Below the pieces are notes generated by a model. That model was given only the letters and a program-made list of their open reading frames with translations. It made no database searches and was not told the DNA's origin. The position numbers and the translations under genes are program-made. From assembly GCA_046594215.1 (NCBI GenBank), contig JBKJPX010000103.1, positions 4,923 through 68,922 on the forward strand: DNA of 64,000 bases. The letters run 5' to 3'. Source of the stretch: Panacagrimonas sp. (GTDB taxonomy: Bacteria > Pseudomonadota > Gammaproteobacteria > Nevskiales > Nevskiaceae). Of this stretch, positions 17,315 through 32,690 are shown one piece after another. Positions within the stretch are counted from its first letter, which is position 1. Each line of letters starts with the position of its first letter.

Positions 17315-18808
17315 TCAGGCCGCCAGGGACAGGGGCTCGTCCACAGCCGTTGAGGCCGCGCCGAACTGCAGCACCCCGTCGTCGATGGGGTCTTGCAGCA
17401 GCATCGGGCGGTCCGACTCAAGGTTGTGCGTAACCGTCCATGGCGCCTTGCTGCCTTGGCGCATGATCTTTTGCTTGCCGCGCTTCACGTAGCCCGATCG
17501 CAGCGAGCCGAAGATCGACTCTTCGCTCGTGCAGTTGTCGAGGTCGACGGGCGTGGCGACCTCGAGACCCTTCTGGTCGAGGTAGTTGATGAGCCGGCAG
17601 ACGTAGGCCGAGGACAGGTCCGCCTTCATCGTCCAGCTCAGGTTCGTGTAGCCCACGATCGCCGCCATGTTCGGCAGGTCCTCGAGCATCACGGCCTTGT
17701 ACATCTTCTTCTCCTCGACGTGATGCACCTGGCCGTCGACGCGTACTTCCATGCCGCCAAAGGTCTGCATCTGCAGGCCCGTGGCCGTCACGACGATATC
17801 GGCCTTGAGTTCCTCCCCCGAGACCAGGCGGATGCCGTTGGGGGTGAACGTGTCGATGTGATCGGTGACGACCGAGGCCTGGCCGCTGCGCAGCACCCTG
17901 AACAGGTCGCCGTCGGGCACCGCGCACAGGCGCTCGTCCCAGGGGTTGTAGTTCGGGGTGAAATGCTTCATGTCGAAGTCGGGGCCGAGCTGCTTGGCGA
18001 CCTCGCCCTGCAGCAGCTTGCGCATGGCCTTGGGCCAGCGCTGCGCCGCCTTGTAGCTCCAGCGGTAGAACTTGATGTTGCGCAGCCGCGTGAGGCGATG
18101 CGTCCACTTCTCGGGCAGGAACCTCTGCAGCACCTCGGTGATCTTGTCGTGGTTGGGCAGGCTGAATACGTAGGAAGGCGAACGCTGCAGCATGGTGACG
18201 TGCGCGGCCTTTTCCGCCATCGACGGCACCAGCGTCACGGCGGTTGCGCCGCTGCCGATCACGACGACGCGCTTTCCGGCGTAGTCGAGGTGCTCGGGCC
18301 AGAACTGCGGGTGGATGCGCGTGCCCTTGAACTGCTCGATGCCAGGGAATTCGGGCAGGTAGCCGCCGTCGTAGTTGTAGTACCCCGTGCCCATCACGAC
18401 GAAGCGCGCCGTGACCTCGCGGGTCTGGCCGCTGGATTCGTGGAGGGCGGTGAGGGTCCAACGACGACGCGCGCTCGACCAGTCGGCGCGCTGCACCTTG
18501 AGGCCGTACTGGATCTTCTGGTCCACGCCGAACTCGCGCGCGGTGTCGCCGATGTACTGTCGGATGGATGGGCCGTCGGCGAGCACCTTGAGACTGCGCC
18601 AGGGACGGAAGCCGAAGCCGAACGTGAACATGTCGGAGTCCGAGCGGATGCCGGGGTAGCGGAACAGGTCCCAGGTGCCGCCCAGCGATTCGCGCCGCTC
18701 GAGGATCGTGATCCGCTTCCCGGGGCACTCGCGGCTGAGCTGGCAGGCCATGCCGACGCCGGAAAGGCCGGCACCGATGATCAGCACGTCGTAATGGGGC
18801 AAATCCAT
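17315..18808 (-). CDS. Type I Baeyer-Villiger (flavin-containing) monooxygenase
   Basis: GAGLSGVG FAD motif, the FKGTRIHPQFWP fingerprint (FxGxxxHxxxWP) and a GSGATAV NADPH motif. Start at MDLPHYD, with GAGGAG about 8 nt upstream. Confidence 0.88.
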   Translation of the reverse strand: MDLPHYDVLIIGAGLSGVGMACQLSRECPGKRITILERRESLGGTWDLFRYPGIRSDSDMFTFGFGFRPWRSLKVLADGPSIRQYIGDTAREFGVDQKIQYGLKVQRADWSSARRRWTLTALHESSGQTREVTARFVVMGTGYYNYDGGYLPEFPGIEQFKGTRIHPQFWPEHLDYAGKRVVVIGSGATAVTLVPSMAEKAAHVTMLQRSPSYVFSLPNHDKITEVLQRFLPEKWTHRLTRLRNIKFYRWSYKAAQRWPKAMRKLLQGEVAKQLGPDFDMKHFTPNYNPWDERLCAVPDGDLFRVLRSGQASVVTDHIDTFTPNGIRLVSGEELKADIVVTATGLQMQTFGGMEVRVDGQVHHVEEKKMYKAVMLEDLPNMAAIVGYTNLSWTMKADLSSAYVCRLINYLDQKGLEVATPVDLDNCTSEESIFGSLRSGYVKRGKQKIMRQGSKAPWTVTHNLESDRPMLLQDPIDDGVLQFGAASTAVDEPLSLAA

Positions 18809-18909
18809 GGTCCGTTTCTCCTCGGAGTGTCGCTGTTGGGTCGGGAGCGGCGGTCGCGCTGCTCGATGACGCCATCGTGCGCCTGTAGTCGCGATAAAAC
18901 TTGATCGAT

Positions 18910-18940
18910 CGCGCGGAATACTTGACCCTGCGCGCGGAAT
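18910..18940. promoter_or_regulatory. Two perfect 10-bp direct repeats (CGCGCGGAAT) spaced 21 bp start-to-start in the BVMO/AraC divergent spacer; candidate AraC-type operator
   Basis: CGCGCGGAAT occurs at 18910-18919 and again at 18931-18940. The 21-bp phasing equals two helical turns, as is typical for AraC/XylS half-sites. No experimental support. Confidence 0.3.
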
Positions 18941-18953
18941 CCCGGAGACGGTC

Positions 18954-20000
18954 ATGGCCGGCTACTACGTCCGCAGCGCCATTCTGGTCGGTTCCATTCC
19001 CTTGCTCGCGGAACGGGGTGCGGACGCCCTGGATCTGGCGCACTCGATAGGCATCGATGCCGCGGCGCTGACCGACCCGGACATCCCGGTGCCCGCGGTG
19101 CAGATCCTGGAGTTCTACGAGCGCGCTGCGCGGATGGCGGACTGTCCGACCTTCGGTCTGCGCATGGCCACGCGCACCGGCATGGCCGTCGTCGGGCCGC
19201 TGTGGATCCTGCTGCGGCAGGCGCAGACGCTGCAGCAGATGGTGGAAGACCTCGCGGCGCACTTCGATCTCTATACGCGCGCCGCGATCGTGAGGCTGCG
19301 CCGCGTCGGCAAGGATGTGCTGCTGACCTGGGGCATGGCAGGAGACGCCGACCGCACCGAGGTGCAGATGGCCGAGTTCTCGCTGGCCGTTTTGTGTGCC
19401 GAGCTACGGCGGCACGCGCCGGCGGGTTGGGAGCCGGCCTCGGTGCGTTTCCGCCACACCGCGCCGCGCGATCGCGCGCCGCTGCGCCGGGTGTTCGGCG
19501 CGAACCTGAGCTTCGACCAGGCCGAAAACGGCATCTTCATCGAGCGGCGCGTGCTCGACCAGCCGCTGCGCGCATCGGGGTCGCGCACGCGCACCCTGCT
19601 GAGTCACGTGCTTCGTCAGGGCGAGGCCGCCAGCGATCCCGGCCTGTTGTCGCGCGCCGGTGCGGTGGTGCGCGCGATGCTGCCGTATAGCCGCTGCACC
19701 CTGCAGGACTTGAGCCGAGCGCTCGGCATGGCGCCGCGAACCCTGCAGGAGCATCTGCAGGCGCAGGGCAGCAGCTTCCAGCAGATCCGCGACGCGGCGC
19801 GCGCGGACCTCGCGGGGCGTTACCTGCGCGAATCGCGGATGAGCCTTTCGCAGGTCGCGGATGTGCTGGGATACGCAGAGCTCAGCGTGTTCAGCCGCTG
19901 CTTTCGGCGCTGGCACGGCGTTTCGGCGCGCCGGTGGCGTACCGAGGCCCGCGCCCGCGACGGTGCCGTGCCCGAGCGTGAGATGCCCCAGTCGCGGTGA
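18954..20000 (+). CDS. AraC-family transcriptional regulator with N-terminal Arabinose_bd-like domain
   Basis: 348 aa. The C-terminal double HTH (LSQVADVLGYAELSVFSRCFRRWHGVSARRWR) is typical AraC. Divergent from the BVMO gene. Confidence 0.85.
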   Translation: MAGYYVRSAILVGSIPLLAERGADALDLAHSIGIDAAALTDPDIPVPAVQILEFYERAARMADCPTFGLRMATRTGMAVVGPLWILLRQAQTLQQMVEDLAAHFDLYTRAAIVRLRRVGKDVLLTWGMAGDADRTEVQMAEFSLAVLCAELRRHAPAGWEPASVRFRHTAPRDRAPLRRVFGANLSFDQAENGIFIERRVLDQPLRASGSRTRTLLSHVLRQGEAASDPGLLSRAGAVVRAMLPYSRCTLQDLSRALGMAPRTLQEHLQAQGSSFQQIRDAARADLAGRYLRESRMSLSQVADVLGYAELSVFSRCFRRWHGVSARRWRTEARARDGAVPEREMPQSR

Positions 20001-20201
20001 CCGCCATCAACGCCGACGACCCGCAGGCCTACGCCACGGCATTCGATGCGGCTCAGGGGTCGGCCTGCCAGGCTCCGCAGTGTGAGGCGATGCCTTGAAA
20101 GCAGGCGCCGCCGGCAGCCCCCACTCGGTCGCCGCTGCCAGCAAGACCCGCCGGCGCGTATGCTGCGCGCCGCTTTCCGACAGGTTTTTGCAGCGGCACA
20201 G

Positions 20202-20888
20202 ATGGGAAATCGCGCGCAGGTGATCGCGGTCGACGGTCCTTCCGGGGTCGGAAAGGGCATGGTCGTGCGCGGCCTGGCGAAGCGATTGGGCTGGCATCGC
20301 CTCGACAGCGGCGCTCTGTACCGGATCCTGGCCCTGTCGGCACAGCATGCCTCGATCGATCTCGCCGATACCGACCGCGTCGCGTCGCTGGCTGCCCGGC
20401 TCGACATCCATTTCGGCGGGAGCACCGAGGAGGACGAGAGCATCGTCGTGAATGGTGTCGATCTTGTGCACCAACTCCGATCCGAGACCACCGGCGGGCT
20501 CGCCTCGAAGATCGCGACCGCACCCGCGGTTCGCGCGGCCCTGCTGCAGCGTCAGCGTGACTTTCGCGTCGAGCCTGGCCTGATCGCCGACGGTCGCGAC
20601 ATGGGCACCGTGGTCTTTCCGGATGCCGAGCTAAAGCTGTTCCTGACCGCGAGTGCGGAAGAACGCGCCAGACGGCGTGCAAATCAGTTGAGCGCACGCG
20701 GTCAGGTGGTTAGACTCGCCGACCTTTCAGCGGAGATTCGAGCGCGTGACGAGCGCGATCGAACCCGGGCAGTGGCACCCCTGGTGCCGGCACCCGACGC
20801 CGTCGAGATCGACACCAGTTTTTTGAATCCAGCTCAAGTATTTGAACGGATTGACGAACTTCTGAAGACCCGAGGCTTGTTCCGCTGA
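20202..20888 (+). CDS. cmk: Cytidylate kinase
   Basis: [13 protein letters not shown]-loop, SGALYR and [13 protein letters not shown] motifs. Start at the internal ATG 20202. Confidence 0.92.
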
Positions 20889-20923
20889 CGCCGACCCGCA
20901 AGGGAAGGCGTCAGTTTCGTTTT
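20885..20923 (+). terminator. Possible rho-independent terminator/attenuator after cmk
   Basis: 8-bp stem CTGACGCC (20885-20892) / GGCGTCAG (20907-20914) with a 14-nt loop, followed by TTTCGTTTT. Confidence 0.4.
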
Positions 20924-21033
20924 GGCGGTCGAGAAAAGTTTCGAAAGTGGTACGGGGGCTGCACCGGAGCAGCCTCATACATCTACCCGTTCTGCCCGAT
21001 CCGGTGCGCGGCAGTCAGTTCAGTGAGTCCTTA

Positions 21034-22716
21034 ATGATCGAAAGTTTTGCGGAGCTTTTTGAAGCAAGCGTGAAGGCAGGCCAGTCGATGCAGCCTGGCA
21101 CCATCGTCAACGCTATCGTGCTGGCAGTTAAACCCGACGTGGTCATCGTCGATGCCGGCCTCAAGTCCGAAGGCGTGATTCCCCTGGCGGAATTCATGGT
21201 CGACGGCGAGATCAGGGTCGCGGTAGGCGATCAGGTCGAAGTAGCGCTTGAAACCGTCGAAGACGGCTTCGGCGAAACCAAATTCAGCAAGGAAAAGGCC
21301 GAGCGGATCAAGACCTGGGAACGCCTGAACAAGGCTTTCGAGGGCAAGGAAACCGTCATCGGCATCATGACCGGCAAGGTCAAGGGCGGCTTCACGGTCG
21401 ACATCGGGACCGTCCGCGCCTTCCTCCCCGGTTCGCTGGTCGATGTCCGCCCCGTGCGCGACACGTCCTACCTCGAAGGCAAGCCGCTCGAGTTCAAGGT
21501 CATCAAGCTCGACCGCCTCCGCAACAACGTCGTCGTGTCGCGTCGCGAAGTACTGGAAGCCGAGTACAGCGCCGAGCGTGACTCGCTGCTCCAGAACCTC
21601 CAGGAAGGCGTGGTGCTCAAGGGCGTGGTCAAAAATCTCGTCGAGTACGGTGCGTTCGTGGACCTCGGCGGCATCGACGGTCTGCTCCACATCACCGACA
21701 TGACCTGGAAGCGCATCAAGGATCCGTCCGAAGTCGTGCAGGTGGGTGCGGAAATCGAAGTGAAGGTCCTCAAGTACGACCGCGAGCGTCGCCGCGTGTC
21801 GCTGGGTCTCAAGCAGCTCGGCGCCGACCCCTGGGTCGACATCGCCCGCCGTTACCCCGAGAAGACCCGCATGTTCGGCAAGGTCACGAACATCACCGAC
21901 TACGGTGCGTTCGTCGAGATCGAGCCGGGCGTTGAAGGCCTGGTCCACGTGTCGGAAATGGACTGGACCAACAAGAACATCAACCCAGGCAAGGCTGTGA
22001 CCATCGGCCAGGAAGTCGAGGTGATGATCCTCGACATCGACGAGGAGCGTCGCCGCATCTCGCTGGGCATGAAGCAGTGCGTGCCCAACCCTTGGGAAGA
22101 GTTCGCGCAGAACTTCCAGAAGGGCGACAAGGTGCACGGCCAGATCAAGTCGATCACCGATTTCGGCATCTTCATCGGCCTCAACGGCGGCATCGACGGC
22201 CTCGTGCATCTTTCAGACCTGGACTGGAACGACGACGGCGCCAACGCCGTGCGCCGCTACTCGAAGGGCATGGAACTGGACGCGGTGGTGCTGGCGATCG
22301 ACGCGGCCCGCGAGCGCATCTCGCTGGGCGTCAAGCAGGTTGCGCAGGATCCGCTCACGCAGTTCATGGCGGAAAACCAGAAGGGCGTCATCGTGAAGGG
22401 TACGGTCAAGACCGTCGAGCAGCGTGGAGCGGTCATCGACCTGGGCAACGGTGTCGAGGGCTACATCAAGGCCAACGACCTGTCGCGCGAGAAGCTGGAA
22501 GACGCCCGCACGGTGCTCAAGGACGGCGACACGCTGGAAGCGCGCTTCATCGGCGTGGATCGCAAGAACCGCATCGTGAGCCTCTCGGTTCGCGAGAAGG
22601 AGATCCAGGAAGAAGCCGAGGTGGTGGCCGAGTACAGCCGCAACGCCTCGACCGGCCGTACCAGCCTGGGCGACATCCTCAAGCAGCAGATCGGCGGTGG
22701 AAACGAAAATCCGTAA
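21034..22716 (+). CDS. rpsA: 30S ribosomal protein S1
   Basis: 560 aa. [10 protein letters not shown] start and six S1 repeats ([71 protein letters not shown]). The last 5 codons lie in AT-rich DNA (see findings). Confidence 0.97.
22678..22700 (+). repeat. Left copy of a 23-bp direct repeat (att-like core) inside the rpsA 3' end
   Basis: ctcaagcagcagatcggcggtgg matches 23921-23943 at 21 of 23 positions. It encodes LKQQIGGG in both copies. Confidence 0.7.
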
Positions 22717-22798
22717 AATCGTTTACGATCAAGGTGTTATCCAGTTATCTGGCTAGCGCCTTTGTCTACAAGTTCTACAAATCAGTACTAGTAGTCGA

Positions 22799-22837
22799 GA
22801 AGCTCCGAGGGGTCATCCTTCGGAGCTTTTTTTCTTA
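22799..22837 (+). terminator. Rho-independent terminator downstream of the present rpsA stop
   Basis: AGCTCCGAGG / CCTTCGGAGCT stem (one bulge) with loop GGTCAT, followed by TTTTTTTCTT. Confidence 0.7.
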
Positions 22838-22867
22838 TTTTCTTTAAGGTATGAGGGCGGTGTAAGC

Positions 22868-23104
22868 GTGCTCACGGCAATAAAAAATCGAATGCTGAAG
22901 TGGTATTACGGGACCTACGTTCCGCTCCCCGAAAATGACCCCAACAGCGCAGTGGTTTTCATTGGACCCGGCTTCAACGTCCAGCCACCTTTAGCCCGGC
23001 TCCTACGAACTCTAGGATTGTTTTACCTCCGCCATTGGCAATGGTTGTGGGGTACCGCCATTGCCTCGGCTAGCTTGGTCATAGCGTTGCGTGCATTGAA
23101 ATAG
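22868..23104 (+). CDS. Hypothetical small protein (78 aa, C-terminal hydrophobic helix) in the AT-rich insert
   Basis: GTG-start ORF. No recognisable family. WQWLWGTAIASASLVIAL is a likely TM segment. It competes with an antisense 53-codon ORF at 23012-23173. Confidence 0.3.
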   Translation: MLTAIKNRMLKWYYGTYVPLPENDPNSAVVFIGPGFNVQPPLARLLRTLGLFYLRHWQWLWGTAIASASLVIALRALK

Positions 23105-23188
23105 CTTTCGCTCGATTCCCATTCCGAAAAACACGCCGCTTAGCCAGGCCAGTCCGTACGCGATGAAAAACATTGTGACGTTCGTCAA

Positions 23189-23683
23189 ATGACCACCTTC
23201 CTCACGAAGTGGAGATGGAAAAGGAAATTACCCAACGGATACTTTGGAGTCTTCGGAGTAGTTCTATTCGCGCTTTTCATATTTGGATATTTCTGGTGGA
23301 ACACCGCTGACAAAACGGCCGTCCGTTTTGTGCGGGCTAATTTGCTTGATTCTGATTCGGCGAAATTTTCGGACGTAGAAATTTGCAGAAATCGCTCCGG
23401 TACCGTTTCGCATGTTTCCGGTCTCGTCAACGCAAAAAACAGTTTCGGGGGTTACACAGGAAATCAGCAGTTTTTGGTTTCCTTCGGATCTGGCGAGCCC
23501 ACGTTTGCCTATTTCGATAGCGACAACTCCGGCCGACTCCTACTCCTGTACACGCAGCAGGAGGTATTGAGTGACAATTTTCTCGGACGACATCGGAATT
23601 GCGCCGACATAAAAGAAGCGGCAACTGTTAAGTGGTCCGAGGCGATGGAAAAAAGACACAACCTATCGACGACCACATATTGA
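23189..23683 (+). CDS. Hypothetical membrane-anchored protein (164 aa) in the AT-rich insert
   Basis: N-terminal TM helix (YFGVFGVVLFALFIFGYFWW) followed by a soluble domain containing the segment VSGLVNAKNSFGGYTGNQQF. Its low-GC codon usage matches the insert. Confidence 0.5.
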   Translation: MTTFLTKWRWKRKLPNGYFGVFGVVLFALFIFGYFWWNTADKTAVRFVRANLLDSDSAKFSDVEICRNRSGTVSHVSGLVNAKNSFGGYTGNQQFLVSFGSGEPTFAYFDSDNSGRLLLLYTQQEVLSDNFLGRHRNCADIKEAATVKWSEAMEKRHNLSTTTY

Positions 23684-23917
23684 TACGCTTTAGCTTTGGA
23701 CAAGGCGCGACCGGTCCAGCGGTGGTCGTGGCCGGCGGCGCCCTTGGTTGAGTTGAGTGCAGCGTCATAAAGGAGCTCTCCGTACCAAATTCGAAGTGTC
23801 TACACTGGTTTGCAACGAATTGATTAAAAACCGAAAAAAACCAGAAGAATCGCGAAGTTTGTAGACAGAGATTTAGTCCAAGCTATTGAATCGGTAGGGG
23901 TATTGAGATTATCCGTC

Positions 23918-23956
23918 CTGCTCAAGCAGCAGATTGGCGGCGGCGACTCGAACTAA
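23918..23956 (+). pseudogene. rpsA: Relic 3' end of rpsA ([12 protein letters not shown]), displaced by the insert
   Basis: In-frame reading gives [12 protein letters not shown]-stop, against [13 protein letters not shown]-stop at the live rpsA end. No upstream coding continuity. Confidence 0.6.
23921..23943 (+). repeat. Right copy of the 23-bp direct repeat
   Basis: ctcaagcagcagattggcggcgg. AT-rich DNA lies to its left and normal-GC DNA with terminator hairpins to its right. Confidence 0.7.
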
Positions 23957-23986
23957 GTCGCGTATCGGTTAGCTGTAGCTGTCTAG

Positions 23987-24056
23987 ATTTCTGGCGTATC
24001 CGCCAGAAATCAAAGAGAAAAAACGAAGGGCTGCGCTTGCGCGGCCCTTTTTTTTG
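23987..24056. terminator. Two hairpins after the relic rpsA tail; the second is a bidirectional rho-independent terminator
   Basis: Perfect 10-bp stem ATTTCTGGCG/CGCCAGAAAT (23987-24010, loop TATC). Then GGGCTGCG/CGCGGCCC (one G-U pair), flanked by an A-run upstream and TTTTTTTT downstream (24026-24056). Confidence 0.65.
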
Positions 24057-24093
24057 GCCTATCGTCCCAGCCATCCCCGGGTGGCGAGGCGTC

Positions 24094-24432
24094 ATGACGA
24101 AGTCCGAACTCATCGAGCGCCTGGCCGCGCGCCAGACCCATCTCATGCAGAAAGACGTCGAGCTGGCGGTCAAGCAGATCCTCGACCGCATCAGCCTGGC
24201 GCTGGCCAAGCAGGATCGCGTCGAGATCCGCGGCTTCGGCAGCTTCGCGTTACACCATCGTCCCAGCCGCGTGGGCCGCAATCCGAAGACCGGCGAGCCG
24301 GTGACCATCCCTGCCAAGCACGTCCCGCATTTCAAGCCTGGCAAGGAGATGCGCGAGCGCGTCAACGCCGGTGCTGCGACCAATCCCATCGTGGTGTCGA
24401 CCTCGGTCGATTCCGACAGCGATGACGATTGA
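24094..24432 (+). CDS. ihfB: Integration host factor beta subunit
   Basis: [11 protein letters not shown] ... [10 protein letters not shown] ... GRNPKTGE is canonical IHF-beta. It carries an acidic C-terminal tail (DSDSDDD). Confidence 0.95.
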
Positions 24433-24435
24433 GGC

Positions 24436-24574
24436 CGTCATGCCCTCAGCCAGAAGAGAGAAATTGGCTTGATACGCGGCATGACGCCCCTCACCCCACC
24501 GTCGACTCCGTCGACGGTCCCCCCCTCTCCCGCTTCGCGGGCGAGGGGGGTATGCCCAGGCTCCTTCGGAGCCT
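24436..24574. repeat. Stack of four stem-loops (REP-like, includes CCCCTCACCCC and CCCTCTCCCGC...GCGGGCGAGGGG motifs) in the ihfB-lapA spacer
   Basis: Four inverted repeats: CGTCATGCC/GGCATGACG (24436-24486), ACCGTCGAC/GTCGACGGT (24498-24518), 13 of 14 bp CCCCCCTCTCCCGC/GCGGGCGAGGGGGG (24520-24550), and AGGCTCC/GGAGCCT (24558-24574). Confidence 0.6.
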
Positions 24575-24598
24575 CGACTTCGCGACCGGCGAGCTAAG

Positions 24599-24922
24599 GT
24601 GCTGCGCATCCTCGTCATTGCCGCCCTGATCCTGTTCCTCGTCCTGGGCGCTTCGATCGGCTACTTCAACGCGCAGGAAGTCGAGTTCGACTACCTCGCT
24701 GGCACTGTCAAGCTTCCCCTCATCGCGCTGGTCATCGGCGAATTCGTGCTTGCCGTGTTGCTCACGCTGCTGATCTGCCTGGGCCGCATGCTCAGTCTCA
24801 AGACCGAGATCCGGCGCCTGCGCAAGCAGGTCCGGGGTTCGGAGTCCGAACTCAAGTCCCTGCGCGACCTGCCCATCCGCGAGGCGCCTCCCCGCGACAT
24901 CGTCGCCGTCAAAGACGCCTGA
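24599..24922 (+). CDS. lapA: Lipopolysaccharide assembly protein A (DUF1049 inner-membrane protein)
   Basis: 107 aa with two TM helices and a GTG start. It lies immediately upstream of, and overlaps by 1 nt, the lapB-like gene, downstream of ihfB as in many proteobacteria. Confidence 0.75.
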   Translation: MLRILVIAALILFLVLGASIGYFNAQEVEFDYLAGTVKLPLIALVIGEFVLAVLLTLLICLGRMLSLKTEIRRLRKQVRGSESELKSLRDLPIREAPPRDIVAVKDA

Positions 24923-26097
24923 TGCTGGACAGCACCCTGGGATGGCTGCTGTTTCCGCTGGGAACTGCTCTAGGCTGGTACCTGGCCCGTCGCACGCCGG
25001 GGTCGCACGCCGCCTCCCGGCCGAGGCATAGCCCGATCGCGGGCATCAGCACGCTGGTCCACGACGATCCAGACCAGGCGGTCGCCGCATTGCTGAGCGC
25101 CGAGACCCTCACCGAGGAGGCCGTCGAACTGCACCTGACGCTCGGCGGCCTGTTCCGCCGTCGCGGCCAGGTCGACCGCGCGCTGCGCGTGCACGAGGCC
25201 TTGCTGTCCCGCAGCACGCTGACGCCGGCGCAGCGCAACCGCACGGAGTACGAGCTGGCCGAGGACTATCTGAAGGCCGGCGTGTTCGACCGCGCCGAGC
25301 AAATCTATTCGTCGCTGGCCGACCGCGGCTTCAAGCTGCTGGCCTGCCTGGAGGCGGTGATTTCAATCCACGAGAGCTCGCACGACTGGCCGCGTGCGAT
25401 CGAGGCCAGCCGCCGGCTCGAAGCCGCGAGCGGCGTGTCGCGTCGCGCCATCACCGCGCAGTACCAGTGCGAGATGTCCGATGACGCGCGGCGCGCCAAG
25501 AACGTCGATGAAGCGCAAGCACAGGCCAAGCGCGCCCTGAGCACGGACAACACCTCTGCCCGCGCCAACCTCGGAATCGGTCGCCTGGCCCAGGCGCGCA
25601 GCGACTGGTCCGACGCGACCACCGCCTACGCCAAGGTCGCAGAGCTCGAACCCAAGCTGATGCCCGAGATCGTTCGCCCGCTGTGGGAATGTTGCCGCGA
25701 TTGGGGCCGCCCCGAGTACTTCGTGCACTGGATGGAAGACCTGCCCGAGGACCAGCGCATCGGCATCATCGACGTGGTGCGCGCCGAACTGCTGCACGAG
25801 ACCGGCATGGATCCCGCGGGGTTTCTGCTCGAGGCCTTCGAATCACGCCCGAGCTGGAGCGTCCTCGAGCAGGTGACGAAGCTCGAGGCGCCGCAGGACC
25901 CCGAGTTGCTGGCCCGCCTCTCGGGCGCGATGCGCGGCGCGCTCAAGACACTGAGCGCGGAACGCCAGAAGTACCAGTGCCAGAGCTGCGGCATGAAGCC
26001 CGCGCAGCTGTTCTGGCATTGCCCCAGCTGCAAGCAGTGGGGCACGGTGTTTCCGCTCGAAGACCGGTTGCAGGTTCGAAGCAGCCCCTTGCCCTGA
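24922..26097 (+). CDS. lapB: Lipopolysaccharide assembly protein B (TPR protein with C-terminal rubredoxin-like zinc finger)
   Basis: N-terminal TM, TPR repeats and the C-terminal CQSCGMKPAQLFWHCPSCKQWG motif typical of LapB/YciM. Confidence 0.9.
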   Translation: MLDSTLGWLLFPLGTALGWYLARRTPGSHAASRPRHSPIAGISTLVHDDPDQAVAALLSAETLTEEAVELHLTLGGLFRRRGQVDRALRVHEALLSRSTLTPAQRNRTEYELAEDYLKAGVFDRAEQIYSSLADRGFKLLACLEAVISIHESSHDWPRAIEASRRLEAASGVSRRAITAQYQCEMSDDARRAKNVDEAQAQAKRALSTDNTSARANLGIGRLAQARSDWSDATTAYAKVAELEPKLMPEIVRPLWECCRDWGRPEYFVHWMEDLPEDQRIGIIDVVRAELLHETGMDPAGFLLEAFESRPSWSVLEQVTKLEAPQDPELLARLSGAMRGALKTLSAERQKYQCQSCGMKPAQLFWHCPSCKQWGTVFPLEDRLQVRSSPLP

Positions 26098-26107
26098 GAT
26101 ACCGAAC

Positions 26108-26740
26108 ATGGAACCGGCCGAAAAGGAACTCATCTACGTCGCCGACCCCATGTGCTCCTGGTGCTGGGGTTTTTCGCCGGTCATCGAGCGCATCGCACCG
26201 ATGCTGCGCGAGCGCGCCGCGATCCGCGTCCTGCCCGGAGGTCTGCGCACCGATATCCGCGAGCCGCTCTCGGAGCACGAGGTCAGCTACATCATGGGCG
26301 AGTGGCGCGAGATCGCCGCGCAGACGGGCCAGCCTTTCGACTTCGAGCAGCCGCTGACCACCGATTACGTCTACGACACGGGCCCGAGTTGCCGTGCGCT
26401 ATCGGTGATGATCCGCGAGCGTCCGAATTGCGGGCTGGATTACCTGAAGAGCCTGCAGCAGGCGTTCTATGTCGGCCGGCGCGACCTCAAGGATCCGGAG
26501 GTGCTCGCTGACTATGCGCAGACCTACGGCATCTCGCGCGCGACGTTCCTGGCGAAGCTGGAGGCGCCTGCCGCGGTCGAGGCGCTGGACGAAGACGTGC
26601 ACTTCGTGCGCCGCTGCGGGATCGAGGGATTCCCGTCGGTCCTGCTGCGCGCAGGACCGCGCATCCAGCGTCTGGCCATCGGCTACCAGCCCTTCGAGGT
26701 CCTGCAGCCGCACCTCCAGCGCTGGCTCGAAGAGGTCTGA
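26108..26740 (+). CDS. DsbA-family thioredoxin-fold protein
   Basis: 210 aa. The CSWC (CxxC) motif sits at the N-terminus in the context YVADPMCSWCWGF. Confidence 0.8.
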   Translation: MEPAEKELIYVADPMCSWCWGFSPVIERIAPMLRERAAIRVLPGGLRTDIREPLSEHEVSYIMGEWREIAAQTGQPFDFEQPLTTDYVYDTGPSCRALSVMIRERPNCGLDYLKSLQQAFYVGRRDLKDPEVLADYAQTYGISRATFLAKLEAPAAVEALDEDVHFVRRCGIEGFPSVLLRAGPRIQRLAIGYQPFEVLQPHLQRWLEEV

Positions 26741-26921
26741 CGCGCGGTCGTTCGGACCGCCTCGGCTCGGCTCAACCCCGAAACGGGTTGACGCACGCGG
26801 CGCGGCTCGCCACCGTTCACCAACGCTGGCCTGCACACAAATGCCGCCAAAGTTTCTCGGGAACTGGATTTCCTGTGCCCGCTGACGGTTGAACATGTCG
26901 GCGGCGATCAAAAGGGGACAC

Positions 26922-29900
26922 ATGCAGACGAACACCGCTTGGCGCGTCGACTCGCGCTCGACTCCGACCGCGCTGCGCATCGCTTTGCTGTTGCTGCTTT
27001 CGCTATGCGCAACGCTCGCCGACGCCGCCACGGTGAGCAGCTTCTCGCCGCAGGGCGCGGCGCGCGATGTGCGCCAGGTGACGGCGCGATTCTCCGAGGC
27101 CGTCGTGAAGTTCGGGGATCCACGCCTGCCCGATCCGTTCACGGTCGAATGCGCGGCCAAGGGCAAAGGTCGCTGGGCCGACGGTCGCAACTGGGTGTAC
27201 GACTTCGAGGCCGACCTTGCCGCCGGCGAGGCGTGCACGTTCACTCTCGTCGAGGGCCTGAAGACGCTGACCGGCGAAAGCCTCTCGGGCAAGGACGAGT
27301 TTTCGTTCGCCACCGGCGGCCCCGCCATCCGCGCATCGATGCCCTACGAGGGCGCGACCATCGACGAGAACCAGGTCTTCGCGCTGGGCCTGGATGCGCC
27401 CGTGACCGACGCCTCCGTCGCGAAGAACGCTTTCTGCGCGATCGACGGGGTCGAGGAACGTATCCCGCTCACGGTGCTTACGGGCAAGGATCGCGAGGAG
27501 CTGCTGTCGAAGCGCCGCGTGCTCGGCTACGCCTACTACTCGGTGCTCTGGAAGGACGGCGACAGCGGCGACGTACAGGTGACGCACGATGCGCTGAAGA
27601 AGGCCGAGAAGAACGTCGTCGTCGCGCGGTGCTCGCGACCGCTCCCGAACGCCACGACCGTGAAGCTGGTCTGGGGCAAGGGCGTGGCGACGCCCAGCGG
27701 TCTCGAGACGGTTGAAGACCAGGTCAAGGGGTTTCGCGTGCGCGATGCCTTCACTGCGCGCTTCAGCTGCGATCGCGTGAACGCCGACGCACCCTGCGTG
27801 CCGGTGCTGGCAATGAACTTGACCTTCTCTGCGCCGGTGTCGCGCGAACAGGCCGAGAAGATCCGGCTGGTGGGAAAGGAAACGCGCAAGCCGAACCTTG
27901 GCAGCGGCGAGGACAGGTTCGTGGAGAGCGTGAGCTTCGATCCGCCGTTCCCGACCGTGGCGCAGTTCCAGGTGCAGTTGCCGGCGGACGTGCGCGACGA
28001 CGCGGGCCGCGCCATCGAGAACCGGGGCAGCTACCCGCTGGCGGTGGCCACCGACGAGGCGCCGCCGCTGGCCAAGTTCAACGGCGAGTTCGGCATCCTC
28101 GAGCGATCCGAGGGCGGCGTGCTGCCCATCACGATCCGTGATCTCGAGGACAAACCCAGCGGGCTGAAGATCGGTGGCCAATCGAAGCGCATCGACACCG
28201 AGGCCGGGATCCTCGACTGGATGAAGCGCGTGCGCGTGGCGATGAACTCGCGCTGGGAGGACAGCAAATTCATCCAACCGGGCATCGACTCGGTGTTCGC
28301 GGGCGAAGAGGGGACGCCCTTCGACCTGCCCAAGCGCGAGGGCGGCAAGGCCTTCGAGGTCATCGGCATCCCGCTCGGCGAGCCGGGGTTCCATGTCGTC
28401 GAGATCGCGAGCCCGCGCCTGGGCGCCGCGCTGCTGGGCGACGATCGCCCGCGCTACGTGGCGACGACCGCACTGGTGACCAACCTCGCGGTGCATTTCA
28501 AGTGGGGCAAGGAAGGCTCGCTGGTCTTCGTCTCCACGCTCGATGGCGCCAAGCCCGTCGTAGACGCCGTGATCCATGTCGTCGACGGCTGCGACGGCAA
28601 GCCGATCTGGGAAGGGCGCACGGGCACGGATGGCGCGGTGCGTATCGACAGCGGCCTGCCCACCCCCAAGGCCTGGTCGAGCTGCTCGAACGAGGACTCG
28701 CACCCGGTGATGGTCAGCGCGCGCAAGGACGACGACCTGTCGTTCACGATCAGCGACTGGAACCAGGGCATCACGCCCAGCGACTTCAATCTCGAGAGTG
28801 GACTGTGGGAGTCGTCGCAGGTCGCGCACACCGTCCTCGATCGTTCGCTGTTCCGTGCCGGCGAGACGGTGTCGATGAAGCACTTCTGGCGCGAACACAC
28901 GGCCAAGGGCCTCGCGGTGCCCGAGGCGCGACCGACCGCACTGGTGATCGAGCACGAGGGCAGCGGCTCGAGCGTGACCCTGCCGCTCAACTTTGACGCC
29001 AACGGTGTGGCGGAATCGCAATGGGCGATTCCGAAGGAGGCCCGTCTGGGCGAATACCAGCTGCGCTTCACGGGCAAGGATATCGCGCAGACGTCCGGCA
29101 GCTTCCGCGTGGAGCAGTACCGCATCCCGCAGATGCGCGCGGTGATCACGCCGCCGGCCGAACCCGCGGTGGCGGTCAAGGCGCTGCCGCTGGATCTCTA
29201 CGTCGGTTACTTCTCCGGTGGCGCCGCCGCGAAGCTACCGGTGAAGCTGCGCACGCAGGTACGTCCGCGCGCGGTCACGTTCCAGAGTTACGACAGCTTC
29301 AGCTTCGGTGGCACGCCCTTGAAGGCAGGCATCGTCGAGGGCGGGGAGGGCGGCTATTTCCCCGACGACGAATCCGGAGCCGACGATGCCGCGCGGCCGC
29401 TGCCGGCGCAGACGCTGCCGCTGACGCTCGACGCGAATGGATCCGCACGCACCACGATCGCCGACCTTCCCGCGTCGGCCGAAGCGCAGGAAGTTTTCTC
29501 CGAACTCGAATACCCGGACGCCAACGGCGAACTCACGAGCGTGCGCGCAACCACGCCCCTGTGGCCGGCCAAGCTCGTCGTCGGCCTGTCGGGCGACGAC
29601 TGGTCCGGCAAGAGCGACGAGCTCAAATTCCAGGCCGTCGTGCTGGATCTCAAGGGCAGGCCGCTTGCTTCGCAGCGTGTCACGGTGCAGCTGTGGTCGA
29701 AGATCACGCATTCGTATCGCAAGCGACTCGTCGGCGGCTTCTACGCCTACTCGCACAGCGAAGAAACGATCAAGCTCGACGCCGCCTGCCGCGAGAAGAC
29801 CGACGCGCAGGGCCTGATCCGCTGCAAGGTGGCCCCGCGCGCCAGCGGCCAGGTCCTGCTCGAGGCCTTGGCGCAGGACGCCGACGGCCACACTTCGCGG

Positions 29901-32690
29901 GCCGTTGCCTCGCGCTACGTCGCCGGCAAGGACGACTGGTGGTTCGCGCAGGCCGACAACGATCGCATGGACCTCATCCCGGAACAGCGCGAGGTCGAGC
30001 CGGGCGCCACCGCGCGCCTGCAGGTGCGCATGCCGTTCCGCAAGGCCACCGCGCTGGTCACGGTGGAACGCGAGGGCGTGCTGCGCTCCTACGTCACCGA
30101 GATCTCCGGCAAGGAGCCCGTGATCGAGGTGCCGATCGATGGCGCCGACTCGCCCAACGTCTACGTCTCGGTGCTCGCGGTGCGAGGCCGCGTCAGCGAT
30201 TTCCGGTCGCGCTTTTACGATTTCCTGCGCTGGCTGCACCTGGATCGCTGGTTCAGGCTCGACGGCGGCATGCCGACTGCGATGGTGGATCTCTCCAAGC
30301 CGGCGTACCGCCTGGGCATGGCGCGGATCGACGTGGGCTGGAGTGCGCACCGGCTCAAGGTGGAGGTCAAGCCCGGGGAAGCGTCATACAAGACGCGCGG
30401 CAAGGCCGTGGTGCAGGTGCAGGTCACGCCGGCGGCCGGTGGCGCGATGCCCGCCGACGCGGAGATCGCATTCAGCGCGGTCGACGAGGCCCTGCTCGAC
30501 CTGCACGCGAACAACTCCGTTTACGTGCTCGAGCAGATGATGCAGCGGCGCGGCGTCTCGGTGCTCACCTCGACCGCGCAGATGCAGGTCGTCGGCAAGC
30601 GGCACTACGGGCGCAAGTCATTGCCGCCGGGAGGGGGTGGCGGACGCGGCGCGGTACGTGAACTGCTCGACAGCCTCCTGCTGTGGAAGGCGCGCGTGCC
30701 GCTCGACGCGCAGGGCCACGCCACGGTCGAGGTCCCGCTCAACGACGCGTTGAGCTCCTTCAAGCTGACCGCGGTCGCCAGCGTCGGCGCCGACCGCTTC
30801 GGCACGGGCAGCGCGAGCATCCGCACCACGCAGGACTTCCAGCTCATCTCGGGCGTGCCGCCGCTGGTGCGCGAGAACGATCGCTACGAGGCGATCTTCA
30901 CGGTGCGCAACACCACCCGGGAAGCGCGCGAGATCGAGGTCGAGGCCGAGGCCATCGCGACGGGTCTCAAGGAGCCGCTCGTGCACGCCTCGCAGAAGCT
31001 CAACGTGCCTGCCGGCGAGGCGCTGCCGGCGCGCTTCGAGCTGACCGCACCCTTCGACGTGTCCCAGGTGAGCTGGACCGTGCGCGTCCAGGACAAAGCC
31101 GGCGAGCCGCTCGACGCCCTGAAGATCGTGCAGGAAGTCGTGCCGGCGTACCCGGTGCGCGTCTACCAGGCCACGCTCTCGCAGCTCGAAGGCTCCACCG
31201 AGATGCCGGTCGAACGGCCAGCGGATGCCATCGTGGGACGCGGCGGCGTGCGCGTGAACCTGCAGGCGTCGCTGACGGCCTCGCTGGATCCGGTGCGCGA
31301 CTGGGCGCGGCTGTATCCGTACACCTGCTACGAGCAGGGCGCATCGAGAGCCGTCGTGCTCGAGGATCGCGCGATGTGGGACCAGCAGATGGCGCGGCTG
31401 TCTTCGTATCTCGATTCTGATGGCCTGGTGCGCTACTTCCCGTCGACGATGCTCGAAGGCAGCGATACGCTCACGGCCTACCTGCTCGCGATCGCGCAGG
31501 AAGCGGGCTGGCCCATCCCCGAGTCGGACCGCAATCTGATGATCGAAGGCCTCGCGGGCTTCCTCGAAGGACGCGTGGACCGCGGCTCGCAGATCCGGAT
31601 CGCCGACCAGACCGAGCGAAAGCTCGCGGCCATCGAGGCGCTGTCGCGCTACAAGCTCGCCAAGGCCGCGTGGGTCACGTCGCTCACGATCGATCCGAAC
31701 CTCTGGCACACCTCGGCCGTGATCGACTGGATCGGCATCCTGCAGCGCGTGAGCACGATCCCGGAGCGCGACCGCCTGCTCGAAGAGGCCAAGACCATCC
31801 TGCGATCGCGTCTGAACTTCCAGGGCACGACGATGGGCTTCTCGGCCGAGCAGGACGACGCGCTGTGGTGGCTCATGATCTCGGCCGACGTCAACGCGAA
31901 CCGCGCGATCCTCGCGCTGCTCGGCGACAGTGCCTGGCGCGAGGACCTGCCGCGCATGATGCGCGGCGCCATCGGTCGGCAGCACAAAGGCCACTGGAAC
32001 ATCACCACGGCCAACGCCTGGGGCGTGCTCGCGACGCGCAAGTTTGCCTCGGCCTTCGAGCGCGAGTCGGTGGGCGGCGTCACCACCGCGTCGCTCGGCG
32101 CCGCGCAGCAGCGCAAGGACTGGAAGGATCCGGCGAACGCGACGCTGGACCTCGCCTGGCCTGATGGCCCGGGCGTCCTCAAGCTCGCGCACGAGGGCAC
32201 GGGCAAACCCTGGATCATCGTGCAGAGCCGCGCCGCGTTGCCGCTCAAGGAGCCGTTTTCCTCGGGCTATCGCATCAAGCGCACGGTGACGCCGGTCGAG
32301 CAGGCGGTGAAGGGCAAGTGGACGCGCGGTGACACCGCGCGCATCAAGCTCGAGATCGACGCGCAGTCGGACATGACCTGGGTCGTCGTCGAGGACCCGG
32401 TGCCCGGAGGCTCGACCATCCTTGGCGGTGGCCTGGGTCGCGACTCGCAACTGCTGGCCCAAGGCGAGGAACGAGAAGGCGAAGCCTGGCCCGCGTTCGA
32501 GGAACGGCGCTTCGATTTCTACCGCGCCTACTACGCGCTCGTACCCAAGGGCGGCTTCAGCCTCGAGTACACGGTGCGCTACAACAACGCGGGTCGCTTC
32601 GTGATGCCGTCGACGCGCGTGGAGGCGATGTACTCGCCCGAGATGCTCGGTGAATCGCCCAACGCGCCGATGCAGGTGGACGTGCCCTGA
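26922..32690 (+). CDS. Bacterial alpha-2-macroglobulin family protein (large, about 1922 aa)
   Basis: Signal-like N-terminus (ALRIALLLLLSLCATLADA) and long arrays of MG-type beta-domains. A thioester-type motif YPYTCYEQGAS (CxEQ) is present. Translationally coupled (ATGA) to pbpC, as in yfhM-pbpC operons. The ATG at 26922 has AAGGGG upstream. Confidence 0.9.
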   Translation: MQTNTAWRVDSRSTPTALRIALLLLLSLCATLADAATVSSFSPQGAARDVRQVTARFSEAVVKFGDPRLPDPFTVECAAKGKGRWADGRNWVYDFEADLAAGEACTFTLVEGLKTLTGESLSGKDEFSFATGGPAIRASMPYEGATIDENQVFALGLDAPVTDASVAKNAFCAIDGVEERIPLTVLTGKDREELLSKRRVLGYAYYSVLWKDGDSGDVQVTHDALKKAEKNVVVARCSRPLPNATTVKLVWGKGVATPSGLETVEDQVKGFRVRDAFTARFSCDRVNADAPCVPVLAMNLTFSAPVSREQAEKIRLVGKETRKPNLGSGEDRFVESVSFDPPFPTVAQFQVQLPADVRDDAGRAIENRGSYPLAVATDEAPPLAKFNGEFGILERSEGGVLPITIRDLEDKPSGLKIGGQSKRIDTEAGILDWMKRVRVAMNSRWEDSKFIQPGIDSVFAGEEGTPFDLPKREGGKAFEVIGIPLGEPGFHVVEIASPRLGAALLGDDRPRYVATTALVTNLAVHFKWGKEGSLVFVSTLDGAKPVVDAVIHVVDGCDGKPIWEGRTGTDGAVRIDSGLPTPKAWSSCSNEDSHPVMVSARKDDDLSFTISDWNQGITPSDFNLESGLWESSQVAHTVLDRSLFRAGETVSMKHFWREHTAKGLAVPEARPTALVIEHEGSGSSVTLPLNFDANGVAESQWAIPKEARLGEYQLRFTGKDIAQTSGSFRVEQYRIPQMRAVITPPAEPAVAVKALPLDLYVGYFSGGAAAKLPVKLRTQVRPRAVTFQSYDSFSFGGTPLKAGIVEGGEGGYFPDDESGADDAARPLPAQTLPLTLDANGSARTTIADLPASAEAQEVFSELEYPDANGELTSVRATTPLWPAKLVVGLSGDDWSGKSDELKFQAVVLDLKGRPLASQRVTVQLWSKITHSYRKRLVGGFYAYSHSEETIKLDAACREKTDAQGLIRCKVAPRASGQVLLEALAQDADGHTSRAVASRYVAGKDDWWFAQADNDRMDLIPEQREVEPGATARLQVRMPFRKATALVTVEREGVLRSYVTEISGKEPVIEVPIDGADSPNVYVSVLAVRGRVSDFRSRFYDFLRWLHLDRWFRLDGGMPTAMVDLSKPAYRLGMARIDVGWSAHRLKVEVKPGEASYKTRGKAVVQVQVTPAAGGAMPADAEIAFSAVDEALLDLHANNSVYVLEQMMQRRGVSVLTSTAQMQVVGKRHYGRKSLPPGGGGGRGAVRELLDSLLLWKARVPLDAQGHATVEVPLNDALSSFKLTAVASVGADRFGTGSASIRTTQDFQLISGVPPLVRENDRYEAIFTVRNTTREAREIEVEAEAIATGLKEPLVHASQKLNVPAGEALPARFELTAPFDVSQVSWTVRVQDKAGEPLDALKIVQEVVPAYPVRVYQATLSQLEGSTEMPVERPADAIVGRGGVRVNLQASLTASLDPVRDWARLYPYTCYEQGASRAVVLEDRAMWDQQMARLSSYLDSDGLVRYFPSTMLEGSDTLTAYLLAIAQEAGWPIPESDRNLMIEGLAGFLEGRVDRGSQIRIADQTERKLAAIEALSRYKLAKAAWVTSLTIDPNLWHTSAVIDWIGILQRVSTIPERDRLLEEAKTILRSRLNFQGTTMGFSAEQDDALWWLMISADVNANRAILALLGDSAWREDLPRMMRGAIGRQHKGHWNITTANAWGVLATRKFASAFERESVGGVTTASLGAAQQRKDWKDPANATLDLAWPDGPGVLKLAHEGTGKPWIIVQSRAALPLKEPFSSGYRIKRTVTPVEQAVKGKWTRGDTARIKLEIDAQSDMTWVVVEDPVPGGSTILGGGLGRDSQLLAQGEEREGEAWPAFEERRFDFYRAYYALVPKGGFSLEYTVRYNNAGRFVMPSTRVEAMYSPEMLGESPNAPMQVDVP

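Follow-up and report, generated by a model that had tools for sequence, protein, structure and literature searches.

The 3' end of rpsA, the gene for ribosomal protein S1, carries a 1.2-kb insert in a 64,000-nt stretch of the Panacagrimonas sp. contig JBKJPX010000103.1 (the whole of this stretch is called the window below). The insert lies between two copies of a 23-nt core and restores the reading frame of rpsA with codons of its own; it contains no recombinase gene, and the corresponding empty site is present in relatives. We consider it likely, at about three chances in four, that it is a remnant of a phage-like element of the tyrosine-integrase kind, similar to a cis-mobilizable element (CIME), which entered the rpsA 3' end by Campbell-type site-specific integration and whose integrase was lost by internal deletion.

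The target gene and the duplicated core

The live rpsA gene (21034-22716, forward strand) encodes a translated product of 560 aa with six S1 domains (Pfam E 3.6e-92). Translation of its 3' end (22651-22716) showed that the frame runs from the core into the insert and ends in GGGNENP*. The insert itself occupies positions 22701-23920 and measures 1,220 bp, or 1,243 bp with one core copy included. It provides the last five codons of rpsA together with the stop codon (22701-22716, 16 nt), the first of these codons being split at the junction, so that the new residues are NENP only. The attL core, CTCAAGCAGCAGATCGGCGGTGG (22678-22700, forward strand), lies inside rpsA and has C at core position 15 and T at position 21, and the attR core, CTCAAGCAGCAGATTGGCGGCGG (23921-23943, forward strand), has T at position 15 and C at position 21 and occurs also in the contigs L001 and L082 described below. 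Both copies encode LKQQIGGG; they agree at 21 of 23 nt, with 14 identical nt as the longest shared stretch. Read in frame (translation of 23891-23956), the second copy continues into the displaced native rpsA tail, DSN* (23944-23956, forward strand), the same tail that closes the live rpsA of empty-site relatives. It is followed by a double terminator and then by ihfB (24094-24432, forward strand; Pfam Bac_DNA_binding E 4.5e-33), which is the usual downstream neighbour of rpsA according to synteny in relatives.

The first-pass annotation of the window had described this imperfect direct repeat and had read its second copy as running in frame into a relic rpsA tail, GGGDSN, and both descriptions hold. 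It had also considered that the core could turn out to be a common repeat unrelated to the boundaries of the segment, and this did not come true: the two copies are the sole matches in the 64-kb window with up to three mismatches allowed, 0.01 matches are expected by chance in dinucleotide shuffles, and two copies were reached in none of 100 shuffles. Weak likeness around the core copies reaches 30 nt (25 of 30 identical), and past this point the similarity between the arms of the insert and the native flanks was no better than that of shuffled sequence. The insert is not composite, since no third, internal core copy was found inside it.

The insert is also set apart by its composition. Its G+C content (22701-23920) is 48.4%, against 66.7% for the whole window, and among all windows of 1,220 nt it is the lowest-GC stretch, about 5.7 standard deviations under the mean, with the minimum starting exactly at 22701. 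The profile of G+C content and codon usage that had been proposed as a check thus places the trough exactly on the insert, and G+C at third codon positions is 0.55-0.61 in both internal open reading frames (ORFs) and 0.84-0.88 in rpsA, ihfB and lapB. The earlier claim of a G+C drop was therefore correct as to the trough and its extent, but the value of 42-45% given for it is true only of local 200-nt minima.

Empty sites in relatives and independent junctions

An empty-site allele had been predicted in which rpsA ends in GGGDSN* directly before the hairpins of the double terminator. Such alleles exist in seven metagenome contigs from at least three sister lineages (L083, L086, L093, L094, L095, L096 and L097), all of which have a 559-aa rpsA ending in GGGDSN*, a single core (CTCAAGCAGCAGATCGGCGGCGG), conserved hairpins and ihfB 129 nt downstream. 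With the S1 C-terminus bearing the relic tail as query, we retrieved a protein (P0024) that is 99% identical and has the DSN-type end; on its contig, L083, ihfB is followed by lapA and lapB. The sequence of L086 is identical to that of L083 and was recovered independently, by a pattern scan of Joint Genome Institute (JGI) metagenomes, and the contigs L093-L097, reached via the lapB cluster, add at least two further lineages. BLAST aligned L086 with the window in two segments, 1-847 with 21854-22700 (96.9% identity) and 825-2980 with 23921-26093 (84.5%). The breakpoints are exactly 22700 and 23921, and the 23 nt by which the segments overlap are the core. Furthermore, L093 is collinear with window positions 17458-26730, the insert excepted.

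The gap between rpsA and ihfB is 1,377 nt in the window and 137 nt without the insert, and in about 73 more distant genomes the spacer ranges from -4 to 379 nt and is never 1.4 kb. The closest species-representative genomes (Oceanococcus, Salinisphaera) have an S1 identity of only 74%, and further close, partial S1 proteins carry the labels Solimonas or Nevskia, which points to a host that is uncultured, a high-GC gammaproteobacterium and probably Nevskiales-like. Because a more distant relative (76% identity) likewise has the GGGDSN end, the DSN tail is taken as ancestral and the insert as derived, or as precisely lost in the relatives. Whether gained here or precisely lost there, the insert is a discrete integrated element.

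An attB junction would consist of the rpsA body, the core and cgactcgaactaa, and an attP junction of ..tccgtcctg, the core and aaacgaaaatccgtaa. The right junction was found in an independent Logan assembly (k=31) of another sequencing run, in which contig L082 holds the element arm, the native rpsA tail and the spacer and is 100% identical to window positions 22777-24022 over 1,246 nt. A second Logan contig, L001 (SRR31159421_578299), comes from a strain that is 99.7% identical and starts exactly at window position 23921, the first base of the right-hand core. A k=31 assembly cannot break at a 23-nt repeat, and the start of L001 therefore suggests that in this sample the core has a second neighbour on its left. 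This in turn suggests that the sample holds empty and occupied sites together, which requires an attB with T at core position 15.

The scan of JGI metagenomes with the core retrieved only rpsA genes, all of them empty sites, and one further match. In two of the contigs retrieved (L084, Ga0209499_1000012, and L087, Ga0194049_1001373), the identical 23-nt core stands directly upstream of ihfB in an rpsA that is much more distant, and the attachment sequence thus exists beyond the immediate lineage. The further match (L085, Ga0318493_10207044) is a single core copy that has an unrelated context and is not surrounded by S1 sequence; in DNA of high G+C content it appears to have arisen by chance.

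The replaced gene end and the site of crossover

Two intrinsic terminators now lie between rpsA and ihfB. The one borne by the element begins about 80 nt past the new rpsA stop codon (22797-22838, forward strand; stem 22797-22831, then a T-run), with about 15 base pairs in its stem (the pattern scan gave 16) and a predicted folding energy of -25 kcal/mol (z -4.9). Since the element arm brings a new tail (NENP*) and its own terminator, S1 is intact except for its last residues. The native terminator region (about 23985-24058, forward strand) consists of two hairpins and a T-run (U8), with -39.6 kcal/mol (z -5.4). These hairpins had been suspected to be the original rpsA terminator, and the same hairpins indeed directly follow the rpsA stop codon in the empty-site contigs. 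Positions 23979-24054, on the native hairpins, also gave Rfam matches to Leu_leader (29 bits, against a threshold of 50 bits) and SorY. As all of these are below threshold, a known RNA family was rejected for this region, and the matches most likely reflect a generic resemblance to terminators.

The two differences between the core copies bear on the position of the strand exchange. Nine attB-type sequences from four lineages all have C at core positions 15 and 21, attL has C15/T21 and attR has T15/C21. This is the reciprocal pattern expected when an attP with T15/T21 recombines with an attB with C15/C21, and strand exchange would accordingly have taken place inside GGCGG, core positions 16-20. 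Both T variants are AT-richer synonymous choices and therefore fit an element of 48% G+C. If the sample of L001 does contain an attB with T15, the crossover would lie in core positions 1-14 and the lineage of the window would be one synonymous change away from its relatives; for comparison, L086 differs from the window in about 9% of its rpsA codons (26 mismatches in 847 nt).

The non-coding arms

Between the att sites, the insert consists of two small membrane-protein genes and about 400 bp of non-coding arms. The left arm, of the P' type, is 167 bp long (22701-22867, forward strand). It starts with the substitute tail aaacgaaaatccgtaa and contains a site resembling the consensus of integration host factor (IHF) at 22727-22739 (one mismatch), the motif TGTCTACAA at 22763-22771 and a second TCTACAA at 22774-22780. 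The right arm, of the P type and 237 bp long (23684-23920, forward strand), contains TGTCTACAC at 23797-23805 (forward), a perfect IHF consensus at 23813-23825 (reverse), TGTCTACAA at 23859-23867 (reverse) and an IHF-like site at 23879-23891 (reverse). Shortly after the stop codon of the second gene, this otherwise AT-richer arm has a patch of about 50 nt (23699-23750) that is G+C-rich by eye and whose predicted fold (z -1.6) is not significant.

The shared motif TGTCTACA occurs three times in the arms, at 22763 (forward), 23797 (forward) and 23860 (reverse), against 0.012 occurrences expected from composition-matched resampling of the insert, for a motif chosen post hoc. Five 8-mers are common to both arms, with 1.3 expected (P 0.03). 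By sequence match, the perfect IHF consensus, WATCAANNNNTTR, is the sole one in the window, and it lies between two TGTCTACA motifs. All four matches to the IHF consensus with at most one mismatch in the 64 kb fall in the insert (resampling P 0.03-0.04), one of them 27 nt past the left core and another 30 nt ahead of the right core. With the insert joined as a circle, the arm sites would span about -125 to +105 bp around the core. Arm sites in lambda attP have the same scale and layout. Judged by these sequence features, the arms provide moderate support for a tyrosine integrase with arm binding.

Cargo genes

Both internal ORFs are intact and no pseudogene debris is present. The first, ORF78 (22868-23104, forward strand), is a small protein with a C-terminal hydrophobic segment and belongs to an unannotated family of about 75 aa. 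A word-indexed search returned no homologue of it, and an exhaustive search found 139 representative clusters at E<=1e-3, mostly of 70-80 aa, full-length and with 35-50% identity. Members share the motifs WY.G..PP.NDP.S and HWQW and the C-terminal membrane segment; ORF78 has no Pfam or PHROG family. One homologue (L099, 7682-7912) lies near the end of a phage-like contig that also encodes a Mu-type portal and an ImmA/IrrE-type regulator.

The second gene, ORF164 (23189-23683, forward strand), encodes a membrane-anchored protein of phrog_2320 (E 6.5e-15). In its alignment, the N-terminus is basic, and there is a membrane anchor as well as a domain whose signature is LKDPDSAKF...CG.VNAKNSFGGYTG...C. 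A homologue is found in a P2-like phage region, where it belongs to the accessory part after gpD, ogr and HicAB and lies close to where the recovered contig ends, and others lie between terminase and portal in lambda-like phages or are reverse-strand "lipoprotein" genes in Gordonia phages. The AlphaFold model of ORF164 (predicted local distance difference test score 74) has BFVD matches only to uncharacterised phage lipoproteins. Structural likeness to Tad1 and to NTF2-like proteins was rejected, as the best PDB match (E 0.02, template modelling score about 0.2) is not significant, and for both cargo proteins no match was found in PADLOC or NCBIfam. Across the ORF164 family, one Cys in the CG.VNAKNSFGGYTG motif is near-invariant and another, C-terminal one is invariant, and the two probably form a disulphide. 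In the window copy the first of them is replaced by Ser (residue 77), which could mean drift or a different pairing with Cys66.

According to their sequences, ORF78 and ORF164 are typical small envelope cargo of the "moron" type, of families that occur as accessory genes in phages. These families are uncharacterised and recur in phages, and they may have prophage-type functions such as the exclusion of other phages.

Searches for a recombinase and for the parent element

No integrase, recombinase or transposase domain was found in ORF78 or ORF164. The earlier annotation had listed no integrase in the segment, which we confirmed, and we extended the search to the window, where no recombinase was found among the 30 of 38 predicted genes that were scanned. 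All 30 scanned genes are ordinary metabolic or housekeeping genes, within a serC-pheA-hisC-aroA...cmk-rpsA-ihfB-lapAB neighbourhood. Two matches of a crude regular-expression screen for recombinase motifs were discarded, both being in arginine-rich off-frame ORFs. Further downstream, at 26889-34837, a 1,933-aa ORF with a thioester-like CYEQ motif is followed by a gene for a transglycosylase/transpeptidase of the PBP1C type (the second gene was Pfam-scanned), and the two look like a bacterial alpha-2-macroglobulin/PbpC pair.

The first-pass annotation had proposed BLASTN searches for other copies of the segment, including copies that carry a recombinase. None were found in phage or plasmid records (blastn of the insert against the former and of the insert with its junctions against the latter). 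In viral contigs, exact pattern scans found neither the element-side tail nor the core or a degenerate version of it, and a protein-guided scan for ORF164 gave no match. Phages carrying an rpsA end were likewise not found by tblastn of the S1 C-terminus against phage records, and exact look-ups of cmk, ORF78 and the rpsA of the window returned nothing useful.

Several classes of element were considered and rejected. A tRNA or tmRNA target does not apply, as neither kind of gene lies in 20000-26000. An Xer/dif element (integrative mobile element exploiting Xer, IMEX) was rejected because the window has no match to the dif central region at up to three mismatches. An insertion sequence, a transposon or a miniature inverted-repeat transposable element (MITE) was rejected because there is no transposase domain, there are no terminal inverted repeats (the nearest 12-nt pair lies about 60 nt inside each end) and the duplication is 23 nt long.

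Origin of the insert

We propose that a phage-type element, or one of the type of an integrative and conjugative element (ICE), entered as a circle and that its attP core recombined with the identical 23-bp stretch near the end of rpsA. The products are attL, composed of the rpsA body, the core and an element arm, and attR, composed of an element arm, the core and the native tail. The element arm gives rpsA its new end and its own terminator, and the native DSN* tail and terminator now lie 1.24 kb downstream, still ahead of ihfB. The recombinase was probably a lambda-type tyrosine integrase, as indicated by the repeated TGTCTACA and by sites with the IHF consensus no more than about 125 bp from the core. 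Internal deletion would have removed the integrase together with the remainder of the parent element, and we infer that these were lost rather than never present. The insert would now be passive, and a related integrase acting in trans could in principle excise it. The attL/attR geometry of site-specific integration into a gene 3' end, with a substitute C-terminus from the element, had been recognised in the first-pass annotation, and it is supported here by the empty sites, the restored frame and the element-borne terminator.

Several observations weigh against this proposal. No integrase or Xis gene, nor a recognisable fragment of one, is present in the insert, and for this reason only the arm motifs speak for the class of recombinase; these were chosen post hoc and are of modest significance. 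By inspection, there is no clear dyad around the core that would correspond to inverted core-type sites. An integrase-bearing relative of the element or a free attP was not found in viral contigs, phage and plasmid records or JGI metagenomes, and the attL junction was found solely in the window's own assembly. Tyrosine recombinases usually have an overlap of 6-8 bp, and the 5-bp identity window GGCGG is shorter than this. Moreover, the two mismatches between the core copies could equally be independent C-to-T changes after insertion.

The foremost alternative, already raised in the first-pass annotation as mobilisation in trans, is one that we regard as unlikely: the insert would be no dead remnant but a working non-autonomous mini-element, in which two cargo genes and a terminator are combined with a substitute gene end and complete attP-type arms, and an integrase encoded elsewhere, by a resident or an incoming related element, would move it in and out of rpsA. 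Both arms do look complete, with their motifs within about 125 bp on each side, both ORFs are intact with no debris around them, and the start of L001 at the attR core suggests a second left-hand neighbour in that sample. However, a rpsA with the DSN tail from the same strain, and thus a same-strain empty site, was not found in the collection searched, nor was an attP circle junction or a second copy of the element, and the scanned genes of the window (30 of 38) hold no recombinase. The start of L001 would need an attB with T15, whereas all nine attB-type sequences have C at this position, and the end of a low-coverage contig could fall at 23921 by chance. If such a mini-element did exist, it would be a counterpart of MITEs based on site-specific recombination, and natural populations would contain both occupied and empty alleles.

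It is improbable that the insertion arose by RecA-dependent Campbell-type recombination of a circular DNA carrying an rpsA-like 3' fragment, with about 23-30 bp of homology and no site-specific recombinase. Such an event would leave the same geometry as site-specific integration and would agree with the absence of an integrase, and the element tail GGGNENP resembles natural S1 tails (GGNDN), as if it had been copied from the rpsA of another host. However, about 23-30 bp of homology is at the lower limit for RecA recombination, the homology observed here ends at 23-30 nt, and the attP-like repeated motif and IHF sites in the arms are not predicted by this explanation.

A transposon-like insertion with a 23-bp target-site duplication, the copies of which have since diverged by two substitutions, is more improbable still. 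In its favour, the copies differ at 2 of 23 nt, and each shows one departure from the empty-site consensus, the outcome to be expected of independent mutations. Transposon target duplications do not usually reach 23 bp, though, and the insert has neither a transposase nor terminal inverted repeats at its ends. The differences also match a reciprocal crossover between a T/T attP and a C/C attB, with both T variants suiting an AT-richer element, and an in-frame tail and stop codon followed by a terminator about 80 nt later look designed rather than accidental. Finally, an assembly artefact, with the assembler having joined a small circular or phage sequence to the chromosome at a common core, is so unlikely as to be negligible, for although the window comes from a metagenome-type contig (74.8 kb) and its attL junction lacks independent confirmation, contig L082 independently reproduces the right junction, and final assembly k-mers are typically longer than the core in question (14 identical nt, 21/23 overall).

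If site-specific integration is accepted as the origin, the insert is an unusually clean minimal example, in which the core, the arms, the replacement end and terminator, and the cargo can be read in 1.2 kb, with natural empty sites to compare and a crossover that can be mapped to a few bases. It also offers a clue for genome annotation, as a short duplicated gene tail together with a G+C trough marks an integrated element even where no integrase is present. Since at least one much more distant S1 gene has the core in identical form, an integrase of this specificity, if found, could be a candidate tool for a moderately broad range of hosts.

Comparison with known systems

The element e14 and phage 21 are integrated in the 3' end of icd in Escherichia coli, supply an in-frame gene end and leave the original end as a relic at the far side, in the same manner as described here for rpsA. 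Both encode their own integrase and replace about 165 bp of icd, whereas the rpsA insert replaces only 16 nt and has no integrase left. In sequence, the arms resemble lambda attP in having a repeated 8-9-mer in both arms and in both orientations, with IHF-consensus sites between the motifs and the core. They differ from it in that no inverted core-type sites were identified and int and xis are missing, the sites being known here from sequence. IMEX elements (CTXphi, TLC and VGJphi types) use the XerCD recombinases of the host and have dif as their integration site, with dif-like sequences of 28 bp on either side. They share with the rpsA insert the integration without a recombinase of their own, but the window has no dif-like sequence and the core is coding sequence that does not resemble dif.

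Integration in the 3' ends of housekeeping genes, with the gene restored, is standard for genomic islands, prophages, ICEs and IMEs (elements both integrative and mobilizable) (PMC5704250, PMC12884075). Ribosomal-protein genes among the targets are rpsI, rplL, rpmG and rpmE (PMC5704250, Table 1 and text). The streptococcal tyrosine-integrase IMEs and ICEs that use these genes are similar to the rpsA insert in that a ribosomal-protein 3' end is the target, one repeat holds the gene end and the gene is not disrupted (PMC5704250). Unlike them, the insert lies in another phylum and another gene (rpsA, S1), and no integrase, relaxase or replication gene is found in it. The essential S1 gene would be an addition to those housekeeping genes that have an attachment site at the 3' end. 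That rpsA was unfamiliar as a target had been remarked in the first-pass annotation, and in the full-text literature searched we likewise found no report of rpsA as an attachment site, though the TIGER/Islander collection (about 1.75 million islands, PMC12424338) may well contain cases.

The closest category is that of the CIMEs, which are defined as att-flanked derivatives without an integrase (PMC5704250) and are also a class in ICEberg 2.0. In agreement with this definition, both cores and both arms are present in the rpsA insert and integration and transfer genes are absent. CIMEs such as those at the fda 3' end beside ICESt1/ICESt3 in Streptococcus thermophilus are likewise flanked by attL and attR, occupy the 3' end of a housekeeping gene and carry no integration or transfer genes. 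The rpsA insert differs from them in being much smaller (1.2 kb) and in its host, an uncultured high-GC gammaproteobacterium, and no partner ICE, IME or prophage was seen; its parent, furthermore, looks phage-like and not conjugative. What is particular to the rpsA insert is its target, its very small size and its apparently complete arms.

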